NCBI GenBank assembly: GCA_044892525.1
Contig: CM097885.1
Span: 267,902,001-267,966,000 of the forward strand
DNA: 64,000 nucleotides
DNA from: Schmidtea polychroa
Taxonomy: Eukaryota
Direction: 5' to 3'
Part shown: piece by piece, positions 2,761 through 63,804 of the stretch
Layout of the letters: each line of letters opens with the position of its first letter
Numbering within the stretch: the first letter of the stretch is position 1
Program-made: the position numbers and the translations under genes
Notes under the pieces: generated by a model
Seen by the model: only the letters and a program-made list of their open reading frames with translations
What the model was told of the DNA's origin: nothing
The model's database searches: none

Positions 2761-4139
2761 CGTACGGCAATGTGATTATGGCTATATACATCGTACCATA
2801 TATGTCATTCAGTTGCCTTAGTCGATTATCTACATCCTCATATTCATACCCAAAGTATTCGTTGCCTCAAATAATGAAAATTCGGTTTTCAGTGTCTTTG
2901 GATTCGCAAGTGTTTCTTCAAGGTCTTCAATAAACTTATGAACTGAAACGTTATTTTTACCATAACATCTTTATATTTTTGTTTCCAGTTTTCACTTTAC
3001 AATATTAGGCGAACCTGCCTAAAATAAGTCGGTTAGACAGGTCTTTTCCACATGCACAGTGAACAATGCACAAAGTCAAGCAATGGTTAACGCAACTCGC
3101 AACGTCGAAAAATGTATCTGCTGCCCGTTGCATAGAATGTATAGAAAATCGAATAACTTAAAATTTAATTTTTACATTAATTTGAATTCTTTCAACCCGG
3201 GTTTCTTAATTTAAAAACCGTCAAACCCTAGACCTGATAAATTGTTTAATCAAAATGATCTGCAAAACCCAGGAAACTCCTAGTTCAGTACTCAGTACAC
3301 TTTATAATAGCGGCAAGTAAGCATGAATTTGTCGCTACCTTGGTACGGACAGACTAGTGATTTACTTCACTATCAAGTTCTAAAATAAACACAAGAGCCA
3401 TTCCCACTTAATAATTAGATGCTTTAGTAGCAGTTTCGAATAGGTGTGAATGAATATCTACTTTGACATAACACTCTACCTTATTTCATTTTTTTATCCT
3501 TGCTTCCCTTAAGCTTCTTAGTGGGCATTAATCACCAAAATTTGTCCCTTTTTAACTAAAACTTAATATATTGTTTAATTTACAGTGAATAAGGCATAAT
3601 TCTAAATAAAATATTTTAAAATTACTATATTCATTATTTATTATTTCTCATGAGTTAATAAAGACTCATAGACTCATAAAAAATATTCAAATTCACTGCC
3701 AGATCCAATAGTGCGAATTTTTTTCGCGGGATCCCTCAAAACTTTAAATAAAAAATCAATTAACAGTTAGAATTTACATTTTGATATATAAATATAAATA
3801 TTTATTTAAAAGCAAATCCAATTATAAAAACAAAAGTCATGATCCAGAAGGTAGACAAATTTCTACATTATCAAATCTGTGTTTCAATATTTCTAGATTT
3901 TTAAATGAATATAACTACATAAATGTTTGCCATCAAAATCTTCTAAAATGTTGATGAATAAATATAACTTGTCTGCCGAAAATATACCTACTAAAAGCAC
4001 AAGCTAAAATGTTATTTAAATGGAGATGACTGTAAAAACGACTTGTTTTAATAGGCACTGGTCTTTTTTTAACTTTTTAAGAACAAAATTTGGATCATGT
4101 AAAAAAAATACCACTGAGTAACAACCACTAACAGCATAG

Positions 4140-5885
4140 AAAATGAATCAACTCACAATGAATCCAACGCTAGCCAACCAGAAACATTGATTGGAGGAGG
4201 ACCTACTCAAACATTGCCAATAGAAAATGAGAATTTCCAAATCCATATTAACAATGAATTTACATTTAGCTGTTCTCTCATCGGATGCCAGACAAAATCA
4301 GATTCCGTAGCAGGAATACAACAACACCTAAAGAGAACTCACAAAACAAACCTGATATATGCCAAATGTGCTCAATGTCCCAATAAAATCCAACAGAATG
4401 AGATCATTGAACACGTAAAATCCCATAAAGAAATAACAAAACAATATAAAGACCAGAAGATGGAGATAACAATCCCAATAACACAAGATACCCCATCTAG
4501 CACCACATGACTATCACAGTCTGCCATTGAAACCCAGATTAGATCACTAACAAATGAGCCTAATAACAAAGATAATATAATATGCTACCTAAACCCGCAA
4601 TGCGCAAATGATCTAATATCCAATAATAAGACTGGCCTATTCAAAAGAATCAAAATCTTGTTGTATGGGCCAAACGATCTGGTTGATACGCTAGAATGGA
4701 CAGTTTACCTAGCCCAAAGGAAAAACAAAATATCCATAATAATGGATCCAGATAGAAAGTAATCAAAAAGAAAATGGACAATATCCTCAACATAACAACA
4801 ACAGAAGAGGATATTGAATTCCAATTATCCAATACATCTATTCCAATACATCTACCTACCCAAAACAAAACAACAACTACGATTGTGGAGTATTTGTAAT
4901 TCAGTACATAAACGACTTCCTGAAGAATCCAGAAAGCCCAATATTTAATGTGCCTACTCCAGATGAAATAAATAAAGAAATAAATATCATCAACGATATG
5001 AAGAAATACAACAAATGCACAACTGAAGAAAAAAATCTTGATATTGAGGAAGCAATAAACAAATTCAGACTCCATCAACTATCAATAAATGAAATTCTGA
5101 ACTGGTTCAAGAATAAATATGAACAAAATTTAAAACCCAAAAGAGCACACAGAACAGAAAACAAAAAAACTAACTCTCTGTTCATATCAGATCCAAAGAC
5201 AATACTCACTAAACTCTATAAAAGAAATAATAAAAGAAATCCATCAAGACTCCAATAAAGTCAAACCTGACACCTACATCAATGGACTCACACCTTACCA
5301 GAATATTACATCCAAAGCCACAAAAAGCCGGAATGGGATTCGTGTAAATTATATCAAATAATGATATAATGATAGCAATCATAAAAAGCAAAGATTCAGC
5401 TCCCGGGGAGGATGGAATACCAATCAGAGCACTACGCTAGATTACTAAGATTAAATGTCAGAAGAGCCCATGATTCCAATATACAATCGAATAATGGATA
5501 CAAAGAAAATTCCTGACTCCTAGAAAACGTACACCACCAAATAAATAATAAAACCATGAAAGAACAATCAATCACAAAATTCTGCTAACTGGAGGCCAAT
5601 AACACTGATGCCTACCAGTTACAGAATCTTCATAAAAATCCTAAAATAAAGAAACTTCCAATGGATCTATGAACACAGGTTGATATCAAAATGACAAAAA
5701 GCAGTCAACATTGCCAATGGATGCGATGAACATAATTATATCATCCAAGTGCAGAACGATAAGGCAAATAGAAAGAGATACAAAGGCCAAAAATGTCACC
5801 TGGTGATCCTAGATCTTTAGGATGCTTTCGGCATTATCCCACATGAGGTGATATGGCACATCCTCCAACAAAAAAATCTAAATAT
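4140..5885 (+). mobile_element. NeSL-like REL non-LTR retrotransposon, copy A (zinc fingers, Ulp1-like protease, RT N-half), degenerate and 3'-truncated
   Basis: C2H2-like fingers (CSLIGC...HLKRTH; CAQC...HVKSH), TGA-CTA at 4508, protease NNNYDCGVFVIQY, RT motifs NWRPI.LMPTSYRIF and DAFG; homologous to 17.8-21.9 kb. Confidence 0.85.
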
Positions 5886-6224
5886 GTGAGGTGCTTTCAG
5901 CTGAGAATTAAATATTTCAATAATTTATTAAAATAATTTTAAATGATAAATAATTGACTATTTAAAATAACTTTTAAAAACATTTTTAAATTGAAATTCT
6001 TAAATTTTTAAATTAGAAGAGCTTTTCAATAGTAAATCATTTTTAAATAAATATATTTTAAATATCGAAATTTTAGTAAATGGTTTTTGAAAATATTTTA
6101 TTCAACGCTGAAAATTTGTTTGGAAATTATACAATATTTCATTAAATAAATACTTGGAATTATGTCGTTATCCTGTGAAGCTGATTTAAAAAAAAATTAG
6201 AAGATGTTTTAGCAGCTTCTAATA

Positions 6225-11761: not shown

Positions 11762-11901
11762 NNNNNNNNNNNNNNNNNNNNNNNNNNNNNNNNNNNNNNN
11801 NNNNNNNNNNNNNNNNNNNNNNNNNNNNNNNNNNNNNNNNNNNNNNNNNNNNNNNNNNNNNNNNNNNNNNNNNNNNNNNNNNNNNNNNNNNNNNNNNNNN
11901 N
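11762..11901. other. Assembly gap (140 N)
   Basis: Run of N. Confidence 1.
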
Positions 11902-17733: not shown

Positions 17734-18891
17734 TTGATTTTACCAATTTTGTTCTGCTTTCTGGTACCATGTGAAAATTTATTTTGTTTTTGCTCTAACC
17801 CCAACAATTGGAATAACTTTATTGACCAATATAAAGTCCCAGAACCTTGGCTCAAAAAGCTGAAGGATAGACCAAAATACCCACAACTGAGGAAAGAAGA
17901 TGAATACCTCAACATCATAATAAATACTCTCCGGTCGTATAGATTCGATTGTCAGAGAGATCAGACAGACTCTATTTCATTCTTTCAATTCATGATGAAT
18001 ATAACCATAGTAGGACTCACGAAATGGTTCTCACTCAGAAAGAGAATTGAACCATATAGAAAGGAAATTGCCGCAGCAAGTGTCATGGAGGCAGATGGTG
18101 ATGATGTTCAAATAGTGAGTGAGAATGAGATGGAGGAAATTGATGCAGTAGAAAATCAAGAAATCCATGAAGCAGGTGTAATAGAGGCAGGCATGGTGGA
18201 AGAACCTAATGAAGAGGAAGAAAATCACGGTGATGTAACGCCCTCCTCTGATATGGTAGCCGCTGTCGTTGAGGAGCCTGCAGATGCAACAAAAGACTCG
18301 GACGCTGTGGAGCTATCAAATCCAATAGAGTCAACAGTTGTCGAGGAACCATGTACAATCGCAATCTCTATAGTAAACAGCGAAAACGTAGAAATTGACG
18401 GAAAAAATCAAGGATTAATGGAAAAACCCATTACACCTGTACTGATATCAAACAACGAATCAAGAAAACAATCAAAAAATATCAGGTCCAAGAGTCAGAA
18501 GAAAAAAAGACAAATAAACGACTCTGAATGCCAAGAAAACACAAAAGAAAACAAAAAAATACGTACCGGTGGAGGACCGTCAACGGCAAATACTCCACCA
18601 AGCATTCGTCATAAACCAAACATGAAAATAAACTGTGATCTGAGAATTCAGTGTATATGTAACAAAAAATACACCTACTCCACAGAAATTAATGCGGCCA
18701 AACACTATGAGGAGTCGCATCCACCTTTTGAAAAGCTGATGGTGGAATGCGAACAATGCAACACCACCATCACACTCAGAGAGGCAATTGAGCACATAAA
18801 AGTGGATAAGGAGAACAGAGCCAGAGAGAGGAGCGAACAGCAACCCGCCGCCAAACCAACAAAGGAGGACATCCCTACGGAGATCAGCTGA
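17734..18891 (+). CDS. Retrotransposon ORF1: N-terminal domain, acidic linker and two zinc fingers, ending at the TGA-CTA putative readthrough site
   Basis: 385-aa ORF (true start uncertain); CICNKKY...KHYEESH and CEQC...EH; N-domain homologous to 25315-25686. Confidence 0.75.
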   Translation: MILPILFCFLVPCENLFCFCSNPNNWNNFIDQYKVPEPWLKKLKDRPKYPQLRKEDEYLNIIINTLRSYRFDCQRDQTDSISFFQFMMNITIVGLTKWFSLRKRIEPYRKEIAAASVMEADGDDVQIVSENEMEEIDAVENQEIHEAGVIEAGMVEEPNEEEENHGDVTPSSDMVAAVVEEPADATKDSDAVELSNPIESTVVEEPCTIAISIVNSENVEIDGKNQGLMEKPITPVLISNNESRKQSKNIRSKSQKKKRQINDSECQENTKENKKIRTGGGPSTANTPPSIRHKPNMKINCDLRIQCICNKKYTYSTEINAAKHYEESHPPFEKLMVECEQCNTTITLREAIEHIKVDKENRARERSEQQPAAKPTKEDIPTEIS

Positions 18892-21873
18892 CTATCACAG
18901 ACAGCAATCGAATATTACATAGATTTTCTATCAGGTAATATAGCCACACCAAACACCGTGGCCTATATTAAACCAACATGTGCCACGGACCTGATAGAAA
19001 ATAATAAAGCTGGGCTATACAGAAACATCCATATGGACACAATCGTAGGCTCTGATAAGGTCGTATGGCTGATCCGTTTGAAACTCTGTCACTGATCAAT
19101 ATACCTTGCGGATAAGGAAAACAGAGAATCAATAATACTAGATCCTGACAACCAAATCTCCGAACCAGAAAAAAAACGCAATGAAGATTAACATGGATGA
19201 AATCCTGAAAATGACTATGCAGGATCAATCTCCATTCGGCGGAATAACAGTTGGCGAATACCCCAAACAAGATAACGATTATGACTGTGGGGTATTCGTA
19301 CTCCAATACAAAACGGATTTCCTATCCAGTGATAGAGGGATCAAATTTGCGACCCCAGACTCAATTGCAATCAGAGAGCAAATAAAGAATATTATCATGG
19401 AGAACATCGATAAATATGACAGCCTATTCTCAATCAAGAAAAATGAGGCAATTGAAGGCATCATAAAGAGTTTCCACCTACACCAGACCAACATCGATCA
19501 AATACTCAGATGGTTCGCTGATCTCTATAATAAAAATCTCAAACCACAGAGAAAATATAGAGAGAAAGGCTACACAATTACAAAATGCTCCTACCAGATA
19601 CAGAGAATATTCACGATGGCACCTGGTAGGGCAATCAAAGAGATAGACAAAATCCTGGAACCGGCTACTGATCTAACAACAGCAGTAATGGACACATACT
19701 TCGAAAGATCCACTCCTCCTAAAATGAGAGAAAGACCAGCACCCATTAAAAGTGCTCCAGAATGGGAAACAAACCAACCAATAACCAGGGCAGACATCGA
19801 TGAAGCAATAAGAAACAGCAAAGATGCTGCACCTGGTATGGACCAAATCCCACTTAGACAATGGAAGGAGTGGATGGAATTTGATGCACTAACACCAATC
19901 TTCAATAAACTCCTGGAGACGCATCAAATTCCCGAAGTATGGAAGAAATACTCAACCAAATTAATAATAAAGCCGGGGAAAGGTAACCAACCGGAGAACC
20001 CATCAAATTGGAGACCTATAGCAGTTATGCCAACAAGCTATAGGATCTTCATGAAAGTATTAAATCAAAGATTGTTAAAATGGGTACACAAAAATAAGTT
20101 AATCTCCGGTTGGCAGAAAGCCGTAAACAGAGGAAATGGCTGTGATGAACACAGCTATATTATACAAGTCCAAAAGGAAAAATCCAACAGAGCCAGATAC
20201 AGAAACCAGCAGTACCACCTGGTATTCCTCGATCTGGCAGATGCTTTCGGAACATCATCACCATAAATGGCCAGAACATCAGACACATAAATGAAGAGAA
20301 CCTGTACACCTACCTAGGAGTACGGGTTGAGCAGAAAAATAAGTGTGACTTGGGCGAGGTTTTCAAAGAGGTCGAGACAAAAGCTAACAACATATTCAAC
20401 TCCCTCTTAAGAGCCCACCAGAAAATCGAGGCCTATAACACATTCCAAGTTCATATTTCCACTACAAGCGGAGGAAATATCCAAATCCCACACAGACAAA
20501 TTCGATGAGACAATACGGAAAATGCTAAAAGACAAAAACGTCCTTGATCTGCCAAATAAAAGCCCTCTCATGGACACTGTAATATATTCATCAAAAGAGA
20601 GGGGAGGGCTTGGAATCACAAAAGTTAGTGACGAATACCTAATCCAAGCCCTCAACCGATTCCTAAAGCTCATGAACAGCGGTCACCTCCCCATAGTCAA
20701 AATCCTGAGGGAGGAGCTAACGGATGTCGCACAGCCTGCAAATGGTTGGACGGAAGCTATGAGCACAAAAGACAGAAAGACGCAAAGAAGTCATGGCTGG
20801 ACAAGACTAGAGAGTCAATTAAAGCCCTAAAGACAACCCACGGAATCGAAATAACATTCATACATAAAGGAGACTCCGTGGGATGTTCAATAAAATGCAG
20901 CACAGACAACAAGCCAGATTGGATCCTACCTCCAAACTTGGATCAAATATCCAAAACCCTTCATTGGATGATCAAAGATGCATACTTTAAGATATGGTTG
21001 GCTGCAAAATGCCAAGGATATATTATAAACCTTCCGACATCCGACGAAATGGAATGGAAGATGCCCCGGGTCCTAAAAGACCCTGAATGGAAATACATTA
21101 TAAAGGCCCGGGCAAACATGCTGGATGTCGGAATGAAGCAGTCCAACCAAGGAGGTAGGATCGTTCCAACCAATTGCCGGCATTGTGATTGCCAACAAGA
21201 ATCGGCATCACATGTCATAAACATGTGCAGAAAAGGCGACAGATCAAGGATGGCCAAACACAATGAAATCCAGAAGGCCTTAGAAGATCTATTAAAGTCC
21301 AAAAACATCAATTTTGAGACCGAGACAATTCCAGCAGAGGCAAAAGAGGCCCTAAAACCAGATATAGTGGTCCGCACAAAGAAGCAAATATTCGTAATAG
21401 ACATCAAGTGCCCTTTCGACAACAAAGAAACTGTAGAGCTGGCAAGGGCAAAAAACATGGACAAATACAGAAAACTAGCACAGGACATAAAGGAGCAGAC
21501 AGGAATACATACCTCAGTCGAAACCTTCATAGTCTGCTCCCTAGGCACATGGATAAAGGATAACAACACAATATTCAGAAAACTTGGCTTCAAGTACATC
21601 AAATACAGACAAACCAAAGAAAAAATGATTGACAGAGTAATAAAAGGATCAAGGAAAACATACGAACATCACAGAGGGTTTTACATATAAACATAAAGAG
21701 CCAGGACAAGGATGATTGCACCCGCATCCATAAAAAGGTGCACTTGGTGTCTATTACTAGTCATGGAAGGACCCGGAAGAGTTTGACCATCCCTGTGTGT
21801 TGCACTTAATTGTGCACTTGTTTATTTTTTGTAATGAAATATATGTTTGCCTCTTTATACGTACATAAAAAAA
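17790..21873 (+). mobile_element. NeSL-like REL non-LTR retrotransposon, copy B (most complete; internal RT deletion)
   Basis: Zinc-finger ORF1, Ulp1-like protease (QDNDYDCGVF), RT (NWRPIAVMPTSYRIF, FLDLADAFG), CCHC knuckle (CRHC...SASHVINMC), REL (RHNEIQ-like, KPDIV, IDIK, K..KY), short 3' UTR ending in an A-run. Confidence 0.92.
20746..21690 (+). CDS. Zinc knuckle plus restriction-like endonuclease region of copy B
   Basis: CRHCDCQQESASHVINMC, KHNEIQ, LKPDIVV, FVIDIKCPF, KNMDKYRKLA. Confidence 0.9.
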   Translation: MDGSYEHKRQKDAKKSWLDKTRESIKALKTTHGIEITFIHKGDSVGCSIKCSTDNKPDWILPPNLDQISKTLHWMIKDAYFKIWLAAKCQGYIINLPTSDEMEWKMPRVLKDPEWKYIIKARANMLDVGMKQSNQGGRIVPTNCRHCDCQQESASHVINMCRKGDRSRMAKHNEIQKALEDLLKSKNINFETETIPAEAKEALKPDIVVRTKKQIFVIDIKCPFDNKETVELARAKNMDKYRKLAQDIKEQTGIHTSVETFIVCSLGTWIKDNNTIFRKLGFKYIKYRQTKEKMIDRVIKGSRKTYEHHRGFYI

Positions 21874-22581
21874 TTTTTAATTTAATTTTTTTATTTATAT
21901 TCAGATAAAACCAGAATAATTGTTGCATTATTTTTTTCATGTGTTAACTAATTTGTATTAAATTGCATTAAGTTTTTTCCTTTTCCCCTCATTTTGTCTT
22001 TACATTTTGGAATTTAATTCTGAAAGTGAATAAAGATGCAGGAGAAAATGATTATAAACATAAAAAATCACAAATAACTTTTTTGACGGATAATTGACTT
22101 TCTTTTAATATTTCCTGACTTTTTATGAAATCCAATTACGCACTTAAAGGTTAAAACAATATTTGGTGGTAATTTTGGGACTTGTGGATTATTAAATAAT
22201 TATCCTGGAATGATTGAGCAATATGTTAGAAGTTCGGAAGGTAATTTAACCAAGCTATTAATCAATATATATCATCAGTAATATGTATAATAATTTAGCA
22301 CCTCAAGGGTATCAATATAGCAGTTGAAAATGAATAAAATATTATTATAGAAATAAAGATCATAACAGTGCAGAACACGGTGACTGGAAGGTCGCGACAA
22401 AACAGCAATTAGACCAATATGCTAAAGGTATGCCGAAAATGTTTCACATGAAGTAGAAAAATTGTATATACCACACTGATTGATCAATCATATATTAAAG
22501 AGTCATTACAAACATGTTGTTTCTAGTAGTGGTAGTTTAAACGCTATAAAAGGGTTAACAGAATTAGAATTAAACATAAAT

Positions 22582-23075
22582 ATGATATCTACAACTCAAA
22601 ATACAAACACCGCAAATGACCCTACCGTGCCACCACCTGGAATGCTAAGCAGTGCCGGAGGTAATGGACTATTACGATCTTCACAAGGACATTTCAGACC
22701 GTCACTTGACGGAGATAGGCTTACATTTACCACAACCAAATACGGGGCTAGTTGCATTGAAACTAGAAATACTGGGGAATTGTACCAAATGCCAGTCGAA
22801 AACTACTACCACCATGTCATGAATGGAAACCCAGACATCTGGACAGCTATGCAAAGATATCTTTGGTGGAAACCTATAAAAATGGATTTTGAAATCATAA
22901 ATATTCAAGTGACCCATGAAACATCTCCACAGAACTTTTCTGCTTTACAAAACCAAGTGGAATTATTGGTTCTCAGGGACAAGGCTAATGTCTATAGTCC
23001 ATGCACTATGTCAGAGAAAAAAGGCTAAACCTTTCAAAGACATCTTTCTAAAGGAGGCTGGTCTATATAATGTAG
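22582..23075 (+). pseudogene. Endogenous parvovirus-like capsid (VP) fragment 1
   Basis: GGNGLLRSSQGH...DGDRLTFTTTKY and DIW.AMQRYLWWKPIKMDFEIINIQVTHE align by eye with the parvoviral betaA/betaB and alphaA/betaD motifs (AAV GADGVGNSSGNW...[40 protein letters not shown]); frameshift near 23025. Confidence 0.72.
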
Positions 23076-23839
23076 TGTAGAATGTAATGTATTATCGAGT
23101 TTTGTTGATAATATTATATTTTTTGTTTTAATAATGTTTTAAATTTAGTAATTTTCTGTGTGGCCTTTCACAAGTCTAAAAATGTCACTGTGGCCCACGA
23201 CATGGTTTGATTTTGACACGCATATTTTAGATGATGAATTAAATAATATTTTTCCAAATGATTTGTTCGTGTTATCCGCAAATGAATGATTGAGCCCGCA
23301 TTTATAATAATGATTTATTAATATTTTTATTAATTTTGTTATTTTAGTGAGTTTCCCCACTGTCTCGAAAAGAAAAAAGCCAACGAAATGAGAACGAACC
23401 ACTGGCCGTATTCGGAGTCACGGATATTGATTGTTATTTATATTTTGAATGTGTATTGGTTCTCTTTAGGGCTACAAATAATAATTTTTGGGAAAAATCT
23501 ATTTTTATTAAAATTTTAGTGCGAGAAAATTGAAATCGTTATGTGAAGGTATTTTTGAGTTCGAATCTGACTGGTATTGCAAGAATTCAATTCTCAGACC
23601 TACTATCAAATACATCTTAACTTCCATCAACTCAACATTTAAGGTTAAAATTGATGATCGTTTGCATCCGAATCAGTACAATATCCCCGGGATAATTAAT
23701 TTAATTAGAATAATAAACATTAAAATTTTAATAAAATAACATTGTAGGATTATATATTTCTTTGCATTATATTATTATTATTGATTTTAATTTGTTTTAT
23801 AATATTAATTTTATATGATTAATTTTAAAAATATAAAAC

Positions 23840-24870
23840 CATGGAATATGTTAAGTCTGAAAAGGGACAAGATAAACTGCTGTTCGAAGGATATGTTTAC
23901 GTAAAAAAAGAAATCTAACAAAAGGGGTTGCTTCCTTTGAAAGTTCTAAAGTGAAAGTTCTTTGTAATGATTTTGTAGGTTGAGTTCGCGAGCATACACT
24001 TGAATCCAATCCAACCAAAAGAGAAGTTGATAAGATAACGCAAGCAATGAAGACACGACATACTTGCATAATTTCATTCGGCACTAAATTGTATAGGGCC
24101 CCAGAATTGCTTTACGCAAATAAAAGTTACGCGACAGCCATTAACTCGTGGAGTGCGGGATGCGTTATTGCGCTTATGATTCTCCAAGAAAATTCTATTA
24201 AAACTACTTTCAAATTAATCGGAGTTCCCCTAATAGACAAATCAACATATTCTTTAAAAAACGATCCAGAAGGGAAAATAAGTTATCAGGAATTATTAAA
24301 AATTTGTTTTTTGCAGAGATGTTGTCAGCAATATTTGATTACGATGATAAAAACAGAATAACTGCAGAAGGAGTTTTAGAGATTTTAAAAAATAAAATGG
24401 TTTAATTATATAATTCATTTTTAATAACTCCGAACACTAAAATAAAGGCTCTACGGGTCGATATAACAAAGCTTATCAACCAAATTCAAAATAAACCCCT
24501 AATTTGTTTTATAATAATAATTTTATTTGATTAATTTAAAAAATTTAAAAAATGTTAAAAAAATATGTTAAGTCTAAATAAATTGCTGTTCGAAAGATGT
24601 GTTTACGTAAAAAAAAGAAATCTAGCAAAAGGGGTTGTTTCCTTTGAATGTGAGAAACGTCAATATTAAAAATATTTGAAGCTTAAGTGAAAGTCCTTGG
24701 TAATCAGCTTGTAGGTCGATTTCGCGATGACAATTAATGGGCACTTGAATCCAGTTTCGATAATGGCTGGTTTTGAGCAAGTTATGATCTCGTGTATACA
24801 GCAAGTCTTACCCAAAACCGCCATCAAAGGGTGCTTCTTCCACTTCAGCCATTATATATATTATATTGAT
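23840..24870 (+). mobile_element. MULE (Mutator-like) transposase remnants, two FLYWCH-like starts
   Basis: YVKSEKGQDKLLFEGYVYVK at ~23845, near-duplicate at ~24565, then MISCIQQVLPKTAIKGCFFHFSH (MULE GC.FHF motif). Confidence 0.7.
24070..24400 (+). pseudogene. CMGC-type (GSK3/CDK-like) protein kinase fragment, subdomains VIII-XI
   Basis: TKLYRAPELLYANKSYATAINSWSAGCVIA and EMLSAIFDYDDKNRITAEGVL. Confidence 0.7.
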
Positions 24871-25993
24871 ATGGACGTAGATATAGATAAGGAAGTCACT
24901 GTTGAGAAACCTCCATATCACACCTAATCAAATCCCAAATGCAAAATCCAAACTCCTAACACGAAAATATAAGTTTCAGTCAGAAGCAATGTTAGATTGG
25001 AACAAGAAGATAATAAAGGCTCCACCGGTTGATATAACAAAGGTTATCAACCAAATGCAAAATAAACCCTACAAAAGAACAATTTTTACAAAGTTTGCTA
25101 CGGAGAAAACACTCAAAAATAAAATATCAAAAGAATCCTTCGTGCAAATTAATAGCTTTGTCTTTGGAACTCATAAGTACAACTTTAAAAACAACCATAC
25201 TAGGTTTATCTCATATAGAATAATAAATGCCTATATTAAATAACATACCCAAGATTTCAAGGAAGCAGATTTTGACATGGCAAAATTTGCAAAAAACTTC
25301 ACTGTGCCTGAAGATTGGCTAAAATGCCTAAACCCAAATCCAAAAAAACAATTTTAATGGATAACGATAAAGAAAAAATCAATAAGTTGTCATGCCTATT
25401 GAATAAATATATCTTTAAAAACCAGGAGGAGCAAACCATGGTTGCCAATTTTTTCCACTTCTTTCTACAAAGAACTATATTGGGAATTACAAGGCCATTC
25501 AAATTTCCAAAGTACATAAAATTATTTGGTAAGAAGAATACCGAGAACGTTGTGGAGACGGCTATTACAGTAACAGAAAAAGAAAACAATGTTATTATAA
25601 ATGAATTTGCAGTAACAATGCAAGAAACTGTTCCTGTGACAGTAAATGAAAATGCAAATAATAATGAAGAAACCTCCACCGCTTGAAAAACGAATGAAAA
25701 ATTAAAGGAGATAACACATTTATCACAGTATCATCAGACAAAGAAGAATCGACACTAAAAAGAAGATAAACTACCTTTTTAAGAAAAAGCAAAAGAACCT
25801 GATAGGGGCAGAAAATATAATGACAAAACCAGACCTCGAAATTCATCTAATAATCAACAACGAATACCAAATTGAGTGCAACGCCTGTGATAAAATATCT
25901 GAAAATTACAAGAATGCAATGAATCACTACCGGCAAAAGCACAATTTCCCAAGCAAAACTGTGAACCCTATTTAAATGTAATGAATGTGATGC

Positions 25994-26986
25994 TCACTTT
26001 GGTATTATTGCAACAGAATATTTAATGTTTACACAATTTTCAAATGCTAGATCAGCTAGACTTAAAAACTCAGACGAGCTAAATTTATTGAAGTATAGGT
26101 CGTCGAAGACAATGCCATCAGTTTTCGTGATATCGCTATTGACTCTACCAAGCATTTGCATATGTTTAACATGAATCGGAACTTTAAAATGACTCAGCGC
26201 AAAGTTGGTCTTTCCAATGCCAGTCTGACCAAGGAATATATGAGAACGCATATCGTAAATGTTAATTGGATGCTCAATAAAATCCACAAAATTGGGCAGT
26301 GTAGGCTTGCCGTACTCATTCAGCAATGACTCTACAATTACTTTCCTTTTAGTGATATAATGGAAAAGTTCTTTATCTTTAATATGTTGGACCTTAAAAT
26401 TATTTTCAAAGAATTTCTTACTCTGTTCTCCATAAACGATCGACAGACCATCTGGCTGGCGAATCTCGAGTTTGGTTGCATACTGAAAGACGTGAGCTCT
26501 CTCTGAAGTCAGATGCCCTTTAACAAATGGTATTTTAAATTGTGACCGTACAGCTGTGATTGTAAAGTTTCTTGCAGTTTCCAACATACACTGCATATGC
26601 CGATAACCATTATCCCCAATTTCCTCCTGCGTTGTAAAGAACTTTGTGAGTTTAGAATCACTCCATAGTCCACACAGAACGGCCTTATGCTGCTTGAAAT
26701 ATTGCATTGCGATATTAAAGGACCATAGGTAATATCGATTTCGAAACACATTATCGTTTGTAGAACTTCCCAAGTCAGCAGCAGAATCCCTATTAATCTG
26801 TGCCACCAATTCACGCGTTTCCATCTCTCTACATTTGTCAAGGTGCTCTCTAACTTCATCGACTGTAGAATACGCAGTGCGCTTCGGAGACTGATGCATA
26901 TCGTGCATCGATCCTGTTGACACATCGGTAAAAGACGGGGACTTGTCTCGTGAAGCATTTTCTTCCTTTTGAATACGTTTATGCAT
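25994..26986 (-). CDS. rep: Endogenous CRESS-DNA-virus-like Rep (HUH endonuclease plus SF3 helicase), truncated before motif C
   Basis: Uninterrupted 330-aa ORF: motif I WSFN, motif II QEEIGDNGYRHMQ, motif III YATK, Walker A GQTGIGKT, Walker B IVFDD, then NIKYSVAIIPK. Confidence 0.88.
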   Translation of the reverse strand: MHKRIQKEENASRDKSPSFTDVSTGSMHDMHQSPKRTAYSTVDEVREHLDKCREMETRELVAQINRDSAADLGSSTNDNVFRNRYYLWSFNIAMQYFKQHKAVLCGLWSDSKLTKFFTTQEEIGDNGYRHMQCMLETARNFTITAVRSQFKIPFVKGHLTSERAHVFQYATKLEIRQPDGLSIVYGEQSKKFFENNFKVQHIKDKELFHYITKRKVIVESLLNEYGKPTLPNFVDFIEHPINIYDMRSHIFLGQTGIGKTNFALSHFKVPIHVKHMQMLGRVNSDITKTDGIVFDDLYFNKFSSSEFLSLADLAFENCVNIKYSVAIIPK

Positions 26987-29408
26987 TTGAGAGGTAAGAC
27001 TCTATCAGCTCTCAATAAATGAAATCCTCAACTGGTTCAAAAACAGATATCAAAAATATCAGAAGCCGAGAAGGGCATGCAGAACAGAGAACAAAAAGAT
27101 TAATCTATGCTCATATCAAATACAGAGACTCTATTCATTGAACTCTGGCAGAGCAATAAACGAAATACATCATGATTAAAAACAAAGTTATTGACGTATC
27201 TTCAACGTCAATGGACCTACATTTCACAAGACCAAAACCTCCCAAAATACAAAATATGATCATAATCATTGATAAAAAACCGGAATGGGAATCCTCAAAA
27301 GCAATTACTGAAAAAGATATATTCATAGCAATAAAAAAAAGTAAAGATTCAGCACCAGGAGATGACGGAATACCAGTCAGAGCGTGGAAAGAATGGATGC
27401 CTGAGGACCCATTGACACCAATATTCAACAGAATAATGGAAACTAGGACAATACCAGACTGTTGGAAGACATATATAACAAAATTAATAATAAAACCGGG
27501 AAAAAATAATCAAGCCCAGAATCCTGCAAACTGGAGGCCAATAGCATTGATGCCAACTAGTTACAGAATCTTTATGAAGATACTAAACAGAGGAATTCTC
27601 CAAAGGATCCACGAACACAGACCAATATCAGAATGGCAAAAAGCAGTAAATATCGTCAATGGATGTGATGAACATAATTACATCATAACTGTTCAAAAGG
27701 AAAAACATAACAGAAAAAGATATAGAGGACAACAGTGCCACCTTGTGTTCTTGGATCTTGCGGATGCCTTTGGCAGTATTCCACATAAAGTTATTTGGCA
27801 TACTCTCCAACAAAAAGGCCTATATAAAAACACAATAAACCTTCTACAGGAATGCTACAAGGACTGTCACACTATATACCAAAGTGGAGACACTAGATCC
27901 AGTGAAATCAAGCAGGAGAAAGGTGTTAGACAGGGATGCCCACTATCCATGACTATCTTCAGCCTCTGTATTGAATACTTAATACAGGCGGCAATGAATA
28001 GTGGATAAGGAGTTGAGATAGCGGGAGAAAAAATAAGCATACTAGCCTACGCAGACGACCTTGTTCTGATGGCACCACAACACCATTTAATCCACGAAAT
28101 GCTTGAAAAATAGTCGAACAAGCTAAACTGGCTCACCTGATATTCAAGCCGTGAAAAATGCGGATACTACATCAATAAAAATGACAATGTTGGATGGGAA
28201 AACAACACCTATCTTAATGGCACCAAGATCAAAAAGATTAATGAAGAAAATCTGTATACTTATTTGGGGGTTACAGTTGGAAGTACAAAGAAAAACGACC
28301 TCAACGTGATCTTCAAAGAAGAAGAAGCCAAAGCAAACAGTATTTTCAAATCATCATTAAGAGCTCATCAAAAGATAGAAGCATACAACACCTTCTGTCA
28401 CTCAAAATTTATATTCATATTACAAGCTGAAAAATTCGACGACAAAATAAGAATGTTGATAAAGGATAACGAGGTGCTAAATCTACAACATAAGATCCCT
28501 CTGATGGATACAATCTTCTACTCTCCTACAGAAAAAGGAGGAATAGGCATTACCAAAATCGTAGACGAGCAAATGATCCAAACAATTGCTAGGTTCTTGA
28601 AGCTAATGAACAGCAGCCACTCGGCAATAGTAAATATAATAACCGAAGAATTGATCGATGTAGCCGAGACAAGAACGGAAATCCCATCAACTCAATATCA
28701 GATGCACTAAAGTGGTTAGATGGGACATATGAGCATAAAAGATCAAACTCAGCCAAACTATCCTGGCTTGATAGAGTGAAAAATGCAATCTCACAACTGT
28801 ACAAGGACCATGACATAAAGCTAACATTCCTAACACGAAATATTGGTACCGGGTGCAGCATAAAATGCAATTCGCAAGAAAAACCAGAGGAAGTCTTTCC
28901 ACCATTTTTGGACGAGGCCTCAAAAAAGTTACATTGGATGATCCGGGAGGCATACTTCCAAAAATGGAAACAGGCAAACTGCCAAGGTCACATTCTTAGA
29001 TTGCCACAATCTGAATAACCAGAGTGGAAAATGCCGAAAGTGCAGAAAAGTGCAGAAATTGCGAAAATCCTCATGAGTCATCAATCCATGTCCTGAATAT
29101 GTGTGTAAGAGGAACTAGAATGAGGACCAACAAACACAATGAGGTACAAAAAGCACTAGATGAGATTCTAAAGAAAAAGGAAATCAGCTATGAAGTGGAG
29201 AAGAAACCAAAAGAAGCAAAAGAAATGTTAAAGCCAGACATTGTAGTCAGATTAAAAGAACACATTATGATCATAGACATAAAATGCCCATTCGATGACC
29301 ATGCAACAATAGAAGCATCAAGGACAACAAATCAAAATAAATACAGAAAACTTGCACAAGATATACATGAAGCAACAAACATATACACAACAATCGAAAC
29401 ATTCGTGG

Positions 29409-32400
29409 TGTTGGGCTGATGATCAAAAATAAATAATAATATTCAAATTTATAATTAAGAAAAAATAGAGGGGGAGAACTAGCCTAGAGAAAGGAAAACC
29501 GGGAAAATAAGGGAGAAATAGTAAAAATAATTATCGAACAAAATAGAAAAATTAAATAATAAAAAGATAGCACAGGAAATTAGAATAAAAACATAAAAAC
29601 CTAAAATAACCATAATAATTACGGAAAATCGATAAAATACGACAAATTACCTAAAAATTGATTAAAGAAAGGAAATTAAGAATAAAAAATAAATTAATAA
29701 GAAAACCACCGAAAAACAATAGAAAAATATAGGAAAAGAGTAAAAAACAGAAAAAACGAATAAAATTAAAATACTACAACCGCGCAGAATTCTGATTGGT
29801 CGGAATTCAGTATATAAGGAAAGTTGAACAATTAGTTTACAGTTTTAAAATTTATTCGATAGACGCGAATCATCAGCCAAACCACTCATTACTCATTCTA
29901 TTATCAATCAAACGAATCAAAGAGAATGTAAGGAATTATTTTTAGATTTTAATGCACTACTATGTAAATGATTTTTGAATTTCATATTTGTTATTATACG
30001 TTTCTAAACTTTAATCTGAGTTACAGTACGGTTCCCTATTTTTTCGACGACGATTAAATATGCTTTTTAGGAAAATGAGTAGTATTGGATTTAGGAGTGA
30101 TGCATTTATTCATGAAATTTGTTTATGCGTGAAGAATTTGAATATGAAGATTTCGAAGGGATGTGAGATGATTTATGTCGGAATTGAATTCAATGTTGAT
30201 AACATGTGAATATGTAGAAATAAATTATTTCAGATCATGCGAAGCGTTGTCTATTTGATTTTTAAACAAGGAGATATTTTAATTTTATCATGGCATATTA
30301 TGATTTTGACCTTATTTATATGATATTTTGGGATTGATTAGCTGGGAGGACGTCCGGAATTTGTCGATGTTCGCATTGACGAGGTACGGAGTGTCTTGCT
30401 GGATGATTGATCCCGGTAGAAGGATGCAGGGTATTGTCATTAAAATCGCTACTTTATTCTCCAACTCGGTAGCGGAACTTTGTCCAATTAGTATTCTAAT
30501 CTGAACAAAAATTAACCTTATGAAATAGGAGATTTTAGGCGCCAAACTCGTCCGAAGTATGACTCTCTTCGACAGGTGTAGAAGCCAACTGACTGGAATT
30601 GTGACTATAAAAGCGAAATGCACAGGCGGTATGGGAAGCGATATCTGGCTTATTTGAATAAACTAAAACAATCTGACCAAGTGATTACCTGCCACGTTAT
30701 TCATTGTCATTCTCACCATAATCATTCTGAAGGCTTCGATTCACTCAGTGTAAGTAGATAAGCAGCAGTTGCGATCTAATTCACGCGCTACACCTCTGAT
30801 AAGCTATACTTATCTAAATTCCCGGCAGTATTCGACACCCAGTGGCATGAGTGCTTATCATTTCTCTTTCGAGTTATCTAAAGTTACAACTATTCTGGAT
30901 TGACGGTAAATCCACGCATGCACTTTTAATAAATACAATAATTAACTTAACGGTTTGATAATTAAACCAATTTTCTATTTCGATAACCAACCACTGACGA
31001 ATAACTTATGTTCACAAATCTAAGAACAAATCATAGTGAGTTCTTTAGGGAAGAATGGTCAGGCGAAATGTGTCAGTTACACTTCTAACGAGCATCGGTA
31101 ACTAAATAACTCGCAAGTAAATCAGCGTGTAGATAAACCTATCACATTTTTATCATTTCTATTTTAAGTAATAAATTTTATGAGGCAAGTAATCGAATTT
31201 CAGTGTTTTTCGCGATCGGAGCCCTGCCACCCTTTTGCTAAAATAGAGGCGAACCACATAAATAATTTTGCGTGTATTAAGCATATGTTTGAACCGGATG
31301 AAGTATGATGAATGGGGGAATGAGTGCAGTAGCGAATTTACGAGGAACGAAATAGAAAGAGACTCGATTTCTTCCTTCCTCCAACCGACCCGAGACCGTG
31401 CTTCTCGTGCGCCGACAAAAACGCCCTTTTAAAGAAATCCACCGAATATATAGGGTCGTTGAAACGGAAAATCGATACGCTGGAGGGAACATGGTTTACC
31501 CCTGCCAGTATGAAGGAGGCTCGCATGAAAATTCTCCGTCTTGAACATTGCCGCGACAGCTTGTTGCAAGAGAATCTGAGCCAGAGACTCACCATCAAGG
31601 CACAATCAGCTGCCCTTCATCGCATATACTCAGACGCTGAACTGAAAGCGAGAGTAGCAGAATACCCAATAACGGACAAAGGAAATCTTTTTCCCACGCA
31701 TCATGATTTAACTCTCCTAAGACTTGATCAATCTCTTTGTTGCGGTGCTCACGGTCCACCTCCGGCATCTCCAATTCTCATCGACATCGTTAAGGCCTCT
31801 ACGTCAACAACTGTACCGCCCGTCACTACTTCATCGAATCCGTCAACGTCGCAGCCAGTCGTTTTGCCTGGAAAACAGAAGAGGAAGAAACGGCTAACAC
31901 GGGCCGAGAAAACGAAGAAACGTCGAGAGGAGATGGCAGCCCTCGAGGCGACATTATTTGCAGCCACTCAGGCGAAGGAAGTACCATCGACCAAGATCGT
32001 CGCACCTGTCAAAGTCGCGCCTGTCTCCACCTCTCAGCCACCTTTCGACCCTCCTTTGGAGTGCGACATCGATGCGATGTTAGCGGAGGGAAAAATGATT
32101 TAGAAAGCAACTAACCTCAAGTGTCACATCGTCACAATCCCCTCCAGCAATGCCACACCCAACATCATGACAGACAATATTCAAATTTCCGTGATTTGAT
32201 GCGACTTCCTTACGGATTTGTGCTTGTTTAATTGTTAATTCGAGTTTTGTTTGGAAATTATATTTTTACTTTGTTTTTGCTAATTGTTGGAATGTTGAGT
32301 TTGTCACTATGGGTACAACGATATAATAGCCTAAGCAGATTAAAAGACCTCACTTGGACCAGAGGCAGATTTTTCCTTTACTGATGTAAGTCCTCCTAAG

Positions 32401-32618
32401 GCATTCCGAACCCGAACCGCGAATGCTGTAAGGAGTAGTTTTGGTAACAGAGCTCACCTGCTCACAGGTTCCGACCGCAGCACCAACATGACTCGTAGTC
32501 ATGGGTACCCAGGAGGGAATATCTTTTCAACAAATCATTTGGGCATCTGGGATGAATGAATCACAACGATAACCCCTAGTCATACCAACCGACAAATGCC
32601 CTCCCCAGGTGCCCAACA
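29409..32618. mobile_element. Unclassified 3.2-kb insertion, TGTTGGGC...GCCCAACA termini, 4-bp TSD GTGG
   Basis: GTGG at 29405-29408 and 32619-32622; removal rejoins the REL domain (TFVV|CSLGTW); contains an unassigned 214-aa ORF at 31459-32103. Confidence 0.85.
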
Positions 32619-32811
32619 GTGGTATGCTCTCTCGGAACATGGGACAAAAGAAACGGCGACATATTCAGAAAGCTCGGAATCAGATACGAGGAGTACATGC
32701 CAATAAAGAGCAAAATGATTGAAAGGGTAATAAAGGGCTCCAGAAAGACATACGAGAACCACAGAGGATTCTACCAATAACCCAAGTATATAGACAGAAA
32801 ATGGATGATAG

Positions 32812-33036
32812 CCGGACTTTTGGCAAGCGATTAACCGTTACCTTTGGTGGAAACCCATTGATATGCACTACGAAATCTTTAATATGCAGGTTATCGGGGA
32901 AACTAGCGCCAATAATTTGAACGGTCTACAGCAACAGGCGGAGTTTTTAGTGTACAAGGATGAAAAACATTTATTTGGACCTTGTGCTAACCCCCCAGGT
33001 GGAACAAAATCATTCAAGGATATGTGGTTAAATTAA
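32812..33036 (+). pseudogene. Endogenous parvovirus-like capsid fragment 2
   Basis: PDFWQAINRYLWWKPIDMHYEIFNMQVIGETSANNLNGLQQQAEFLVYKD; 31/58 aa identical to fragment 1. Confidence 0.72.
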
Positions 33037-33407
33037 GCAACTCTTTTATACATTTCAAGTTTGGGAAAGTAATTTATTAAAGTTAAATAAAATGCATATA
33101 AAGAGTTAATATGTATAACTGATTTACATAATATCAACTCCACGTCAATAATTATGGCGTGCTTGATGGATTTAGTACACTGCCAAGGCCGATGGTCCGA
33201 TATTTAATTATTTTATAGTTCTTTTATTTATGTTCTTCTATCATTGAGGATTCCACAAATGAAAATTCAGTAGAAATAAATCAATAAATTTTATTTTTGA
33301 TCTCTTTATTTTATTTCATTTGTTTAAAAGTTTATTCAAAATTTTTATATAAAAAATTTATACTCATTTTACAGAAGAAAGCTGGAATTACATTAGGATT
33401 TACCACT

Positions 33408-33760: not shown

Positions 33761-34477
33761 ATCGAATTCTTCGGACATAATAATATAAGGTAAAAGTTGA
33801 AGACGAAGGGTTACAAATAGATAGCAAGATGATGGGTGGACAGGAGAAAAAAAGGGCGCTACACCTTCTACGGTATGAACATGAAACCAGATTAAATGAC
33901 GAAAATGTTTATTGGAAATTTAATTATTATGAATTCAGAAATCAGTAATTGCAACTTCATTTCGCCAAAATTATGTCATTTATCCGTTAAATTGATTTCT
34001 CTGAAAATTCAGGATACCATGCCTAAACCAATCCAAATTCCAAACTAAATAAGTTTCGGTCGACTATTGAACATCTGAACTAAACGTTTTCTGCGATTGT
34101 ATCTTAAATAAATGTGACATATACGAAAGTCTAATGCTCCGCAAGGGTAGATTTGGTTGGATTAGATATATCCCAGTAAAGAGGTGAGATTTGGCATCAA
34201 TTATTATATACCAAGTGAATCGCAATCTATTTATAATTGGTCATTTATAATTTATACCGAAAAGGGAACAATACGTAATAATAAATATAGATAATAACCT
34301 TATAGATAATAAAAATTATAGATAATAATCGTGATAATAACAGACACCGGCCTCTATACTACCCCAGAAAGTTTTTTTGAGTTTAAATATAAGAAAAATA
34401 TGTTGAAAGGATTGGTTTATCGATCATGATGGTTTTTTAAAAATCTCTAATAACTCTCATTCCGTTGAGACAATAAA

Positions 34478-34548
34478 AGGAGTGGATAGAATTTGATGAT
34501 TTAACACCAATCTTCAACCGAATTATGGAGACGCATCAAATTCCCTAA
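34478..34548 (+). mobile_element. NeSL-like RT micro-fragment
   Basis: AAGGAGTGGATAGAATTTGATGATTTAACACCAATCTTCAA..GGAGACGCATCAAATTCCC closely matches 19865-19935. Confidence 0.75.
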
Positions 34549-34839
34549 ATCCTCCACTGACAGCAAGCTATCTCTTCTCAGCTTGTCCATTTGCCAGCTA
34601 AATCCCAGTCACAAGCGATATTTGTGCTACAAATCAGTGGGTGGCCGTCAGCATGAGGTGAGCCAAATCGCAATGACTGCCAATGCTCTGATGTGCCTCT
34701 GGGTTCATGTGCTTACCTTAGCGCTGTATCATACCCATCTCAGTGACTGCCAATGCCCTGATGGTGCCTCCAGATTTAGATGAGATTTCGAAGACACTCC
34801 ATTGGATGATAAAGGAGGCGAAGTATGTTGGATTGTTTT

Positions 34840-39877: not shown

Positions 39878-42596
<2,719 letters not shown>

Positions 42597-45130: not shown

Positions 45131-45625
45131 TTATTAATTCTACAAATTATGAGCAGCACAAAAAAATTTTACAATTATTTTTTATTTCTGTCTAATTTGT
45201 CACATTATTACATTTTAATTTCCTCTCAATTGTTACTGATTCTTTATAAATTTAGATTTAAATGCTGAATTAAGATTTCTTGGTTATTTGATATTCTACT
45301 TTTTATTCAAATATTAATAAATTATTGTAACAAATAACAGAGAAAATCAATGAAAACTAACATTAAACTGCAAATGAAAATCTAATCTGATATAAATTAT
45401 TTATAAATTGCTTGTCTACATCAAAAAGCAAATTGTATAAACTTGACATTTTAAATGTAACAGGAAATAATTAATATAATAATTATGATTTATGAAAATT
45501 GTGAAACGTTTTTGATATTTAGATAATTGCATAATGTGAAATATGAAAATGGAATATTTTATTGATTTATTTTTATATTAATAATTATTTAGCATTTAAT
45601 CAATATTTTGATAATTTTAGATAAA

Positions 45626-63680: not shown

Positions 63681-63804
63681 AAAAGGTGAGTTGGAACAAT
63701 TGCGTAATCAAATGTTAAAAAATTTTACCCTCCCCCAGGGGTAATTGTTCCAGGGCACCCCTTAACTACCTACTAAGGTTATTTGATTTTCTACTTTTTA
63801 TCAA

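Follow-up and report, generated by a model that had tools for sequence, protein, structure and literature searches.

How did a piece of a viral replication gene come to lie in antisense orientation inside a retrotransposon? The question is raised by a locus in a 64-kb window, by which we mean the whole 64,000-nucleotide (nt) stretch of DNA analyzed here. The relevant features are as follows.

4118..5886, plus strand: retrotransposon copy A, with zinc fingers, a UGA-CUA stop at 4508, Ulp1 protease, and RT start; 3'-truncated, used as reference.
17818..21720, plus strand: copy B, with zinc fingers, a UGA-CUA stop at 18889, Ulp1, RT, RLE, and the start of the 3' UTR.
22582..23066, plus strand: capsid-like fragment 1, probably parvovirus-type, about 0.9 kb after the RLE stop of copy B.
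24887..25996, plus strand: 5' part of copy C, from the N-terminal region through zinc finger 1 into the start of zinc finger 2, bearing about 5 lesions.
25997..26996, minus strand: insert derived from a CRESS-virus Rep (ORF 26986-25997), retaining HUH motifs I-III as well as Walker A and B.
26987..27015, no strand: 7-bp perfect inverted repeat (26987-26993/27009-27015) straddling the right junction.
26997..29408, plus strand: 3' part of copy C, with RT (RVT_1, E 5e-18), thumb, CCHC finger, and RLE start; 7 lesions.
29409..32618, no strand: nested insertion of 3210 nt splitting the copy C RLE, bounded by inverted 8-bp termini (TG...CA) and flanked by a 4-bp duplication of the target.
32619..32811, plus strand: RLE end of copy C and about 30 nt of 3' UTR; stop near 32780.
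32812..33046, plus strand: capsid-like fragment 2, probably parvovirus-type, joined directly to the copy C 3' UTR.

The initial annotation had proposed a 1-kb CRESS Rep inserted antisense into a retrotransposon, and this identification was borne out. The minus-strand frame extends from stop to stop over 25994-27001 (335 codons without a stop), with its first ATG at 26986 and its stop codon at 25996-25994. It retrieved 547 proteins at E<=1e-3 (top identity 36%) and was assigned by Atlas to Cressdnaviricota clusters at 0.95. Its profile matched solved circovirus-type Reps (E 1.6e-11) and solved Rep endonuclease domains, and the top BFVD folds for its model (pLDDT about 90 across residues 81-180) were unclassified CRESS and crucivirus Reps at 18-25% identity. 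HUH motifs I, II, and III are present, with H130 and Y169 conserved (alignment A1), and the SF3 helicase Walker A (G258 K259 T260) and Walker B (D295 D296) residues are invariant in 20/20 alignment rows. Motif C and the arginine finger are missing, cut off at the left junction. As had been claimed, the frame ends before motif C: all 19 aligned homologues run on from Rep's last column into motif C and the arginine finger, and 97 of the 151 tblastn matches within the insert stop at 25997 or 26000. The frame is indeed free of stops, yet it is not pristine, with an in-frame deletion of about 14-27 residues in the linker. Thus, the insert is a nonworking fragment of a CRESS-DNA virus Rep. Because motif C and the arginine finger are absent, the helicase of any Rep made from it would be dead, with the nicking domain kept.

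In a quick tree of 65 rows, no supported group placed the Rep query; P0007 fell in the same unresolved group as P0004 and P0005, with P0006 just outside. P0004 has a 17-residue insert just before motif II that the Rep query does not have, and, judging by the proteins, P0004 and P0005 apparently read through, or start inside, an intron at that place. Intron loss was considered as proof of reverse transcription and dropped as not diagnostic, since P0007 and P0006 also have no intron. CpG depletion was likewise rejected as a clock: the values (flanks, 0.49-0.53; Rep, 0.94; window, 0.84) reflect the composition of the element. The AT skew of the insert is -0.05, versus +0.29 and +0.32 in the flanks.

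The host element contains N-terminal C2H2 zinc fingers, RT, a CCHC finger, and RLE, the last called from the translation and weak nuclease-fold Pfam matches. The Ulp1 protease (PF02902) was detected above the cut-off in copies A and B (E 4e-5 and 1e-5), is deleted in C, and is carried by 5 of 16 longer RT relatives, none of the 16 being a named reference element. By its predicted domains, the element is a NeSL-like RLE-type non-LTR retrotransposon. An identical 12-nt TGA-CTA context at the stops of A and B (4508 and 18889) suggests gag-pol-like readthrough control ahead of the protease. RNA structure 3' of these stops was inconsistent (z -1.2 in A, z -2.3 in B), and the 3' UTR of copy B gave z -0.3. 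The 64 kb yielded no Rfam match at gathering score, a threshold that short target remnants could escape, and the element ends are damaged.

Copy C, whose 5' boundary (24887) is approximate, was recognized in its 5' part by similarity to copy B (tblastx E 3e-8) and by its zinc-finger region (z 5.7 against A, z 3.2 against B). Its 3' end lies beyond the nested insertion, in which no Pfam domain was found (29900-32601). The segment starting at 32619 is contiguous with 29410 on the relative P0155, showing that copy C resumes there; its RLE end has 71% amino acid identity to B 21529-21684. With 12 lesions, the nested 3.2-kb insertion, and deletions, copy C is dead and unable to move.

Both junctions were placed close to where the initial annotation had put them. 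On the left, the second zinc-finger CxxC (25977-25988) is followed by the end of KCNECDA at 25994; the exact base was set from the viral side only, DNA similarity to A and B being too low there. On the right, homology to copy A begins at 26995-26997. The predicted loss of about 700 nt of element sequence was reproduced (680 nt relative to A, 707 nt relative to B), as was the replacement of the readthrough/protease module: the lost part comprises the remainder of zinc finger 2, the conserved UGA-CUA stop, and Ulp1. No TSD was found at the insert. The two junction flanks have no word longer than 6 nt in common. Direct repeats spanning either junction reach at most 4 nt, and repeats of at least 6 nt were found at 17% of random positions. 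Neither poly(A) nor another 3' tail was seen at the insert.

The annotation's absence of a linker is uncertain: of the 10 nt before the Rep ATG, 7 repeat the element sequence at 27009-27015 in inverted form and may be element-derived. The resulting 7-bp inverted repeat is possibly a fold-back or templated-insertion scar. Stems of at least 7 bp occurred at 1.1% of 1500 random positions (24900-29400), a value that becomes about 0.04 once two junctions and two repeat types are allowed for.

We compared the decay of the insert with that of its surroundings. No lesions were counted in the 990 nt of Rep, versus 12 in the 3681 nt of its flanks (conditional P 0.057); P rose to 0.10-0.12 with stricter counts and to 0.17 when in-frame deletions were counted. 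The flanks contain 12 times more homopolymer runs per kb than the Rep, and one flank stretch of 828 nt has no lesion at all. Thus, the open Rep frame is within chance (P 0.06-0.17), and the earlier argument that it implies recent capture or selection is not supported.

With a probability of roughly 0.5, we favor end-joining capture of CRESS-virus DNA into the dead copy C. A double-strand break would have occurred in the dead copy, about 0.7 kb would have been lost at the break, and 1.0 kb of CRESS-virus DNA, or cDNA of a Rep transcript, would have been joined in by end-joining repair. The antisense orientation of Rep would then be arbitrary and the product an endogenous viral fossil. In favor of this order of events are the two halves of copy C, which are colinear, lie on one strand, and are both nearer to A than to B (the left half weakly so). 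The missing TSD and poly(A) and the target loss also point to end joining; CRESS EVEs lacking a TSD are described as common in invertebrates in the relevant parts of PMC4231630 and PMC3198968. Rearrangement of dead copies appears routine here, as indicated by the nested insertion, an approximately 1.1-kb deletion ahead of the capsid piece, and smaller deletions in copy C, and by a deletion of about 140 RT codons (about 420 nt) near 20256 in copy B, which is accompanied by a 7-nt direct repeat. The fold-back repeat at the right junction fits as well, and the lower number of disabling lesions in Rep has the direction of a later arrival. Copies A, B, and C together cover about one-sixth of the window, so chance insertion into one of them is not unlikely. 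Against end joining into an already dead copy, the lesion contrast is not significant, and the fold-back repeat is marginal after multiple testing. Additional bases are likewise seen where TPRT has left a 5'-truncated junction, according to sections of PMC2718515 and PMC13586686.

Double template switching by the element's RT had been offered previously alongside recombination. Capture of viral sequence between colinear, same-strand halves of one element was supported, recombination in a broad sense fits, and template switching is possible but not favored. Under capture during retrotransposition, which we regard as unlikely, the RT would have left its template at 26997, copied the viral strand antisense to Rep (virion or replicative ssDNA), and returned to the element 0.7 kb farther on. 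The colinear flanks suit this route, equal age of insert and flanks was not rejected, and uptake of RNA-virus helicases by non-LTR elements is described in part of PMC6338049. A truncated, modified R2 RT jumps between single-stranded DNA about as well as between RNA templates (PMC8594491). However, two jumps and three broken templates would be needed, because R2-type RT, according to the same paper, jumps only from the template 5' end. Rep mRNA as first-strand template would place Rep in the sense of the element, the wrong orientation. If instead the RT had moved to Rep mRNA while making the second strand, a synthesis that R2 can perform in vitro (PMC13000458), the insert would be antisense and would end close to the start codon; the insert does start 10 nt before an in-frame ATG. 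However, with Met at 3%, about one random break in 8 should have an ATG within four codons, and the possibly element-derived leader bases weaken this point further. The search for further chimera copies proposed earlier was negative for the 64-kb window.

A second type of viral sequence was found behind copies B and C; the initial annotation had noticed neither this nor the continuation of copy C at 32619. The two capsid-like fragments match each other (tblastn E 8e-20, 53% identity over 58 amino acids) and both lose coding capacity at about 160 residues, no more than a few codons from a motif that they have in common. Fragment 1 has a TATA box at 22545 and an open frame at 22480-23028, with a frame break near 23010-23027; fragment 2 stops at about 33034, and approximately 1.1 kb is missing relative to copy B. 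Atlas placed fragment 1 in ssDNA-virus capsid clusters (0.94, with a low recognition score), and 3 of 8 PDB matches of a two-sequence profile were VP2/major capsid chains aligned to the same stretch (best E 0.022). No Pfam match was obtained for either piece, no homologue was found among 504 longer candidates or in other homologue searches, and a single-sequence fold model reached pLDDT 33. From these similarities, both are probably parvovirus-type capsid-like sequences. No other capsid remnants were found in the window. The sequence upstream of fragment 1, which we took to resemble NS1, was discarded as an NS1 remnant: it had no Pfam or PDB support, and no NS1 was found in six frames of 21992-22584. 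A common intron donor at the ends of the pieces was also rejected, the donor-like words lying in different phases and after the stops.

Each of the two element 3' ends in the window has a capsid-like piece behind it, on the element's own strand (rough chance 2e-4, calculated post hoc). The capsid pieces differ by dN 0.38, versus 0.24-0.45 for RT and RLE; synonymous sites are saturated in both cases (pS 0.73-0.85). Ancient segmental duplication was rejected as the source of the pairing, synonymous sites being saturated and dN only 0.24-0.45.

These data bear on a different reading, in which an ambisense ssDNA-virus genome with diverging Rep and capsid genes is either the target or the cargo of the element. 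The 3' half of copy C would be a 5'-truncated insertion lying next to where Rep begins, with the capsid gene behind it; its 5' half would come from a neighboring unit joined to Rep by deletion, and the flanks would be two insertions. Rep and capsid do diverge around the 3' half, all 6 mapped element pieces are on the plus strand, and the capsid divergence matches that of the element, with purifying selection. Ready target changes in NeSL-clade elements are described in PMC4640811, and parvoviruses with an auxiliary CRESS Rep in bioRxiv 10.1101/2024.03.25.586562. Nevertheless, we consider such composite units improbable. The Rep belongs to the CRESS type and the capsid resembles the parvovirus type; a single-virus origin of both is unsupported. 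A tandem array would be required, with a deletion that happened to leave colinear halves, and TSDs for copies B or C were not above chance under either boundary choice. No Rep remnant was found upstream of copy A or B. CRESS stem-loop origins carry a nonanucleotide, whose core had 21 matches in the window versus 17 expected, none near Rep and none between 22676 and 34274. No origin-type hairpin was found in the gap behind copy B, and a rolling-circle origin was found neither there nor near Rep. In a search for the gene neighborhood of the Rep clade, 1 of 14 candidate genome-contig stretches was confirmed, and this locus (L001, 976 nt) had no neighbor gene.

Retention of the insert by selection, as an antisense small-RNA source or a dominant-negative Rep, is very unlikely: 330 open codons and intact HUH and Walker motifs are compatible with it, and avipoxviruses have truncated captured Reps under purifying selection (PMC10193959), but the open frame is within chance and unnecessary for small-RNA use, the linker bears a deletion, and the ATG is preceded by element sequence in antisense. 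An assembly chimera with a contaminating virus, for which the single copy might speak, is hardly credible given that the sole N gap of the window is distant (11762-11901), the junctions have no common overlap usable by an assembler, the Rep is truncated and carries a deletion, and viral sequence of another type borders this element family at two places.

End-joining capture thus remains our preferred reading, with one observation against its partly chance nature: the only Rep in the 64 kb sits inside one of two capsid-linked copies. The physical linkage of this retrotransposon lineage to a parvovirus-type capsid-like gene, based on two copies (B and C) in one window, is on firmer ground than the mechanism, and it may mean that viral DNA was at hand for capture. 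The pairing may mark a retrotransposon tied to a virus. Tentatively, and short of considering it probable, we propose that these are remnants of an RLE lineage tied to ssDNA viruses, which either carries behind its 3' end a parvovirus-type capsid gene, maintained by purifying selection during the divergence of copies B and C, or inserts specifically into ssDNA-virus genomes at a point just upstream of the capsid gene. The Rep in copy C would then have arisen as a by-product of this association or would represent the remaining half of that virus. We found no literature report of such a lineage with a capsid gene or targeting ssDNA-virus sequence.

By itself, the Rep insert extends the fossil record of an AT-rich eukaryote, probably an animal, by one divergent CRESS lineage, and it is a clear example in which viral DNA has taken the place of part of a retrotransposon. 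The recurring association of element and capsid is of greater importance. Non-LTR retrotransposons are generally regarded as capsid-less and as moving mainly vertically. Capsid cargo or ssDNA-virus targeting, if true, would provide a concrete horizontal-transfer route for a non-LTR lineage. Targeting would add a new target class for site-specific RLE nucleases, and an ssDNA-virus-tied lineage would give a LINE-like element access to virions.

The locus resembles several known systems. Invertebrate endogenous CRESS Reps, as portrayed in parts of PMC3198968 and PMC4231630, are likewise partial, without TSD, and in repeat-rich settings; EVEs near non-LTR RTs, and cressvirus fragments fused to retrotransposon-like sequence, have also been reported. 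In contrast, the fragment described here exactly takes the place of a module inside one element, and no relative found exceeds 36% identity to the Rep. The NeSL clade (NeSL, Utopia-1_TSP, and R5/LIN; excerpts of PMC4640811) has the same zinc fingers, Ulp1, RT, CCHC finger, and RLE. Here, however, a conserved in-frame UGA-CUA stop separates the zinc fingers from the protease, the search revealed no rRNA, snRNA, or tRNA target, and a capsid-like gene follows both 3' ends. TRAS and Jockey elements with a viral SF1 helicase, for which passages of PMC6338049 propose an antiviral role, also contain viral sequence in a non-LTR element, and the insect virus-retrotransposon chimeric DNA cited there is a similar kind of chimera. 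Those helicases are RNA-virus domains fused in frame with intact motifs, whereas our insert is a DNA-virus Rep, antisense, truncated, and within a dead copy. Stable pairing of viral genes with mobile elements is likewise known, from portions of the respective articles, for geminivirus-like and parvovirus-like transposons (PMC3198968) and for Teratorn (PMC10175614). As characterized there, those composites are DNA elements, whereas here a TPRT retrotransposon is paired with a single-jelly-roll-type capsid fragment.

In the window, we found three RLE non-LTR retrotransposon copies, all on the plus strand; the third, copy C, holds a viral Rep fragment. These features and the sequences associated with them are as follows:

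4118-5886, plus strand: copy A, RLE non-LTR retrotransposon
17818-21720, plus strand: copy B, RLE non-LTR retrotransposon
22582-23066, plus strand: capsid-like piece 1, behind the 3' end of copy B
25997-26996, minus strand: Rep insert in copy C
29409-32618: nested insertion splitting the RLE of copy C (3210 nt, 8-bp inverted TG...CA ends, 4-bp target duplication)
32812-33046, plus strand: capsid-like piece 2, behind the 3' end of copy C

Copies A and B each contain two zinc fingers, a stop, a Ulp1 protease that passes the Pfam cut-off, and an RT, from which B has lost about 140 codons. The stop between zinc fingers and protease lies in an identical 12-nt TGA-CTA context (A, 4508-4519; B, 18889-18900; both plus strand), and elsewhere the two copies are about 57-66% alike. 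We take this context to resemble known leaky-stop signals. A homologous protein, P0154, starts just past the position equivalent to the stop. Further small pieces of the family lie at 34459-34548 and 34760-34819 (plus strand), and all six retrotransposon pieces mapped in the window are on the plus strand.

Judged by its sequence, the minus-strand frame at 25994-27001 is a CRESS-virus Rep. It is open over 335 codons; the initial annotation, too, had noted a Rep frame free of stops. A search of 1.84 billion representatives returned 547 matching proteins at E ≤ 1e-3 (best identity 36%), and the Atlas placed the frame with Cressdnaviricota clusters (0.95). Its alignment profile matched solved circovirus-type Reps, and the best fold matches of its structure model were unclassified CRESS and crucivirus Reps. 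Pfam was weak on the query alone (E 0.038); Viral_Rep was matched by 11 of the 20 alignment rows. The HUH motifs, Walker A and Walker B are all intact. That the frame ends before motif C was also borne out, with 19 of 19 aligned homologues running on from the query's stop column into motif C and the arginine finger. The motif III-Walker A spacing is 84 residues versus a homologue median of 97 (measurable by pattern in 98 of 126); it was shorter in only 1 of the 98 and was 98-111 in the five rows of the Rep's tree group. A quick tree of 65 rows, built from the query plus 64 hits of at least 240 aa among the homologues P0004-P0075, gave the query no starred group, and no family could be named. 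The nearest relatives, P0004 and P0005, have an apparent intron just before motif II, as read from protein only: P0004 carries a 17-residue insert, and P0005 begins inside it.

The left junction lies 20 nt beyond the first base of the second CxxC. On the right, Rep and element meet at 26996/26997, the point at which DNA homology to A sets in. Measured on A, 680 nt of element sequence are missing at the insert; measured on B, 707 nt. No TSD was found at the junctions. These values agree with the earlier placement just after the second zinc-finger CxxC and at ~26997, with a loss of ~700 nt and no TSD. The accompanying claim that there is no linker is uncertain: the Rep ATG lies 10 nt inside the right junction, and 7 of these 10 nt repeat, in inverted form, element sequence that lies 12-18 nt away. 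A comparable stem occurred at 1.1% of 1500 random positions. Both halves of C are nearer to A than to B (the evidence is weak for the left half), as expected of one copy.

Copy C has been dead for a long time: over 3681 nt, its coding flanks have accumulated 12 stops and frameshifts (hand count). The copy continues past 29410, and its interrupted RLE resumes at 32619. The nested insertion holds a 256-codon open frame (31333-32103) without a real Pfam match and presumably resembles a Ginger-like or LTR-derived non-autonomous element. Tested against the flanks of C, the clean Rep frame had a conditional P of 0.057, which became 0.10 with the right flank alone, 0.12 with three homopolymer-type frameshifts left out and 0.17 with in-frame deletions counted on both sides. 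Homopolymer runs number about 12 per kb in the flanks versus 1 per kb inside the Rep. Within C, one stretch of 828 nt is free of lesions. The open frame hints at a later arrival than the flanks; given these P values, the flank homopolymers and the 828-nt stretch, neither the recent capture nor the selection initially read from it is proven.

Other features were also mapped. A Pack-MULE-like mosaic of duplicated MULE/FLYWCH pieces (23788-24890) includes a captured piece of a protein kinase (23984-24361) along with 58 nt that duplicate C's 5' region at 91% identity (24441-24498). Inverted duplications at 43286-48379 and 59926-64000 (83-95% identical) carry TRAF-type RING, zinc-finger and MATH gene fragments. 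MYST (KAT5-like) acetyltransferase exons at 40400-42064 (minus) flank a degenerate tandem repeat (about 40908-41532), and an RGS-like exon was read by eye at 6829-7284. The TRAF and MYST genes hint at an animal as host. An internally deleted LTR-retrotransposon gag with zinc knuckles and a protease/integrase remnant lies at 50275-52114 (minus). Two overlapping frames at 53380-54500 (plus) share a repeated proline/asparagine-rich module and have no convincing Pfam match. A 414-codon frame at 55663-56907 (plus), without a Pfam match, resembles a Polinton/Maverick-type polymerase in its N-terminal part.

The Rep insert is most likely the fossil of an ordinary mechanism, and we put capture by end-joining repair at a probability of about 0.5. 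Such repair would have taken viral Rep DNA into copy C with loss of element DNA. We infer that end joining best suits the loss of target DNA, the lack of a TSD and of a tail, the possible fold-back scar and the many other rearrangements of C. The initial annotation had offered double template switching by the RT or recombination, and we rank repair above switching, which seems unlikely. Had the RT moved onto Rep mRNA during first-strand synthesis, the Rep would read in element sense, but it is antisense, so such a switch would need the opposite viral strand as template. According to excerpts of one study, an engineered R2 RT can jump onto ssDNA, but R2 RT makes its jumps solely at a template's 5' end, so three broken templates would be required (PMC8594491). 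Second-strand synthesis is described in vitro for R2 (excerpts of PMC13000458), and a second-strand switch onto mRNA would account for both the orientation and the nearby ATG. However, an ATG so near the junction is expected by chance in about 1 of 8 cases (Met 3%), and the intervening bases are mostly the inverted element copy, with its 1.1% stem frequency.

An open frame at 22480-23028, about 0.9 kb behind B's RLE stop, is probably a parvovirus-type ssDNA-virus capsid. Its homologue begins ~30 nt past C's RLE stop (53% over 58 residues, E 8e-20); the earlier account of the copies lacked both pieces. The Atlas gave the frame 0.94 with Cossaviricota-dominated clusters, at a low recognition score, and three of eight PDB matches of a two-sequence profile were VP2 or major capsid chains over the same stretch (best E 0.022). 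The frame had no Pfam or NCBIfam match and no homologue among 504 longer candidates. Only two such pieces occur in the 64 kb, each following one of the window's two element 3' ends on the same strand (rough post hoc chance 2e-4). When B and C are compared, dN is 0.38 and pS 0.85 for the capsid piece (58 codons); for four segments of the element, dN is 0.24-0.45 and pS 0.73-0.81. Piece and element diverged under purifying selection to similar depth, which excludes neutral duplication as the source of the pairing. The two pieces have a motif in common, and in both the coding sequence stops within a few codons of it, favouring common descent with the element. A separate viral gene, lying downstream of a target site, is favoured by a TATA box 37 nt ahead of piece 1's ATG and a T-rich 3' UTR behind B (AATAAA at 22029). 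As for evidence that could decide between the two, no NS1 turned up in six frames of 21992-22584, no origin near the Rep or behind B, and no TSD of B or C above chance. The pairing, supported by two copies, may mark a retrotransposon lineage tied to ssDNA viruses, a reading that we offer tentatively.

Rep and capsid might come from one ambisense virus, with C's 3' half a 5'-truncated insertion between them and its 5' half from a neighbouring unit. Excerpted sources describe variable extra bases as normal at 5'-truncated junctions (PMC2718515; PMC13586686), cruciviruses as mostly ambisense (10.1101/2020.02.27.967703) and one group of parvoviruses as having an auxiliary CRESS Rep (bioRxiv 10.1101/2024.03.25.586562). 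This origin is nevertheless quite unlikely: no link between Rep and capsid pieces was found, no Rep lies upstream of A or B, and a fortunate deletion would be required. By analogy with cases described in part in PMC6338049 and PMC10193959, the insert may have been kept for a selected antiviral role, which we consider improbable, and misassembly is more improbable still.

Among the literature covered, mostly titles and abstract starts, with subscription journals and Repbase outside, there was no report of a non-LTR element that pairs with a capsid or targets an ssDNA virus, nor of readthrough in NeSL. Densovirus NS1 EVEs (endogenous viral elements) of flatworms are described in an account that does not involve retrotransposons (PMC13055364, in part). 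The domain order of A and B matches that of NeSL and Utopia-1_TSP (excerpts of PMC4640811), which makes the copies candidate members of the NeSL clade. Excerpted reports describe EVEs that lack TSDs, some of them near non-LTR RTs (PMC4231630; PMC3198968; bioRxiv 10.1101/2024.03.25.586562).
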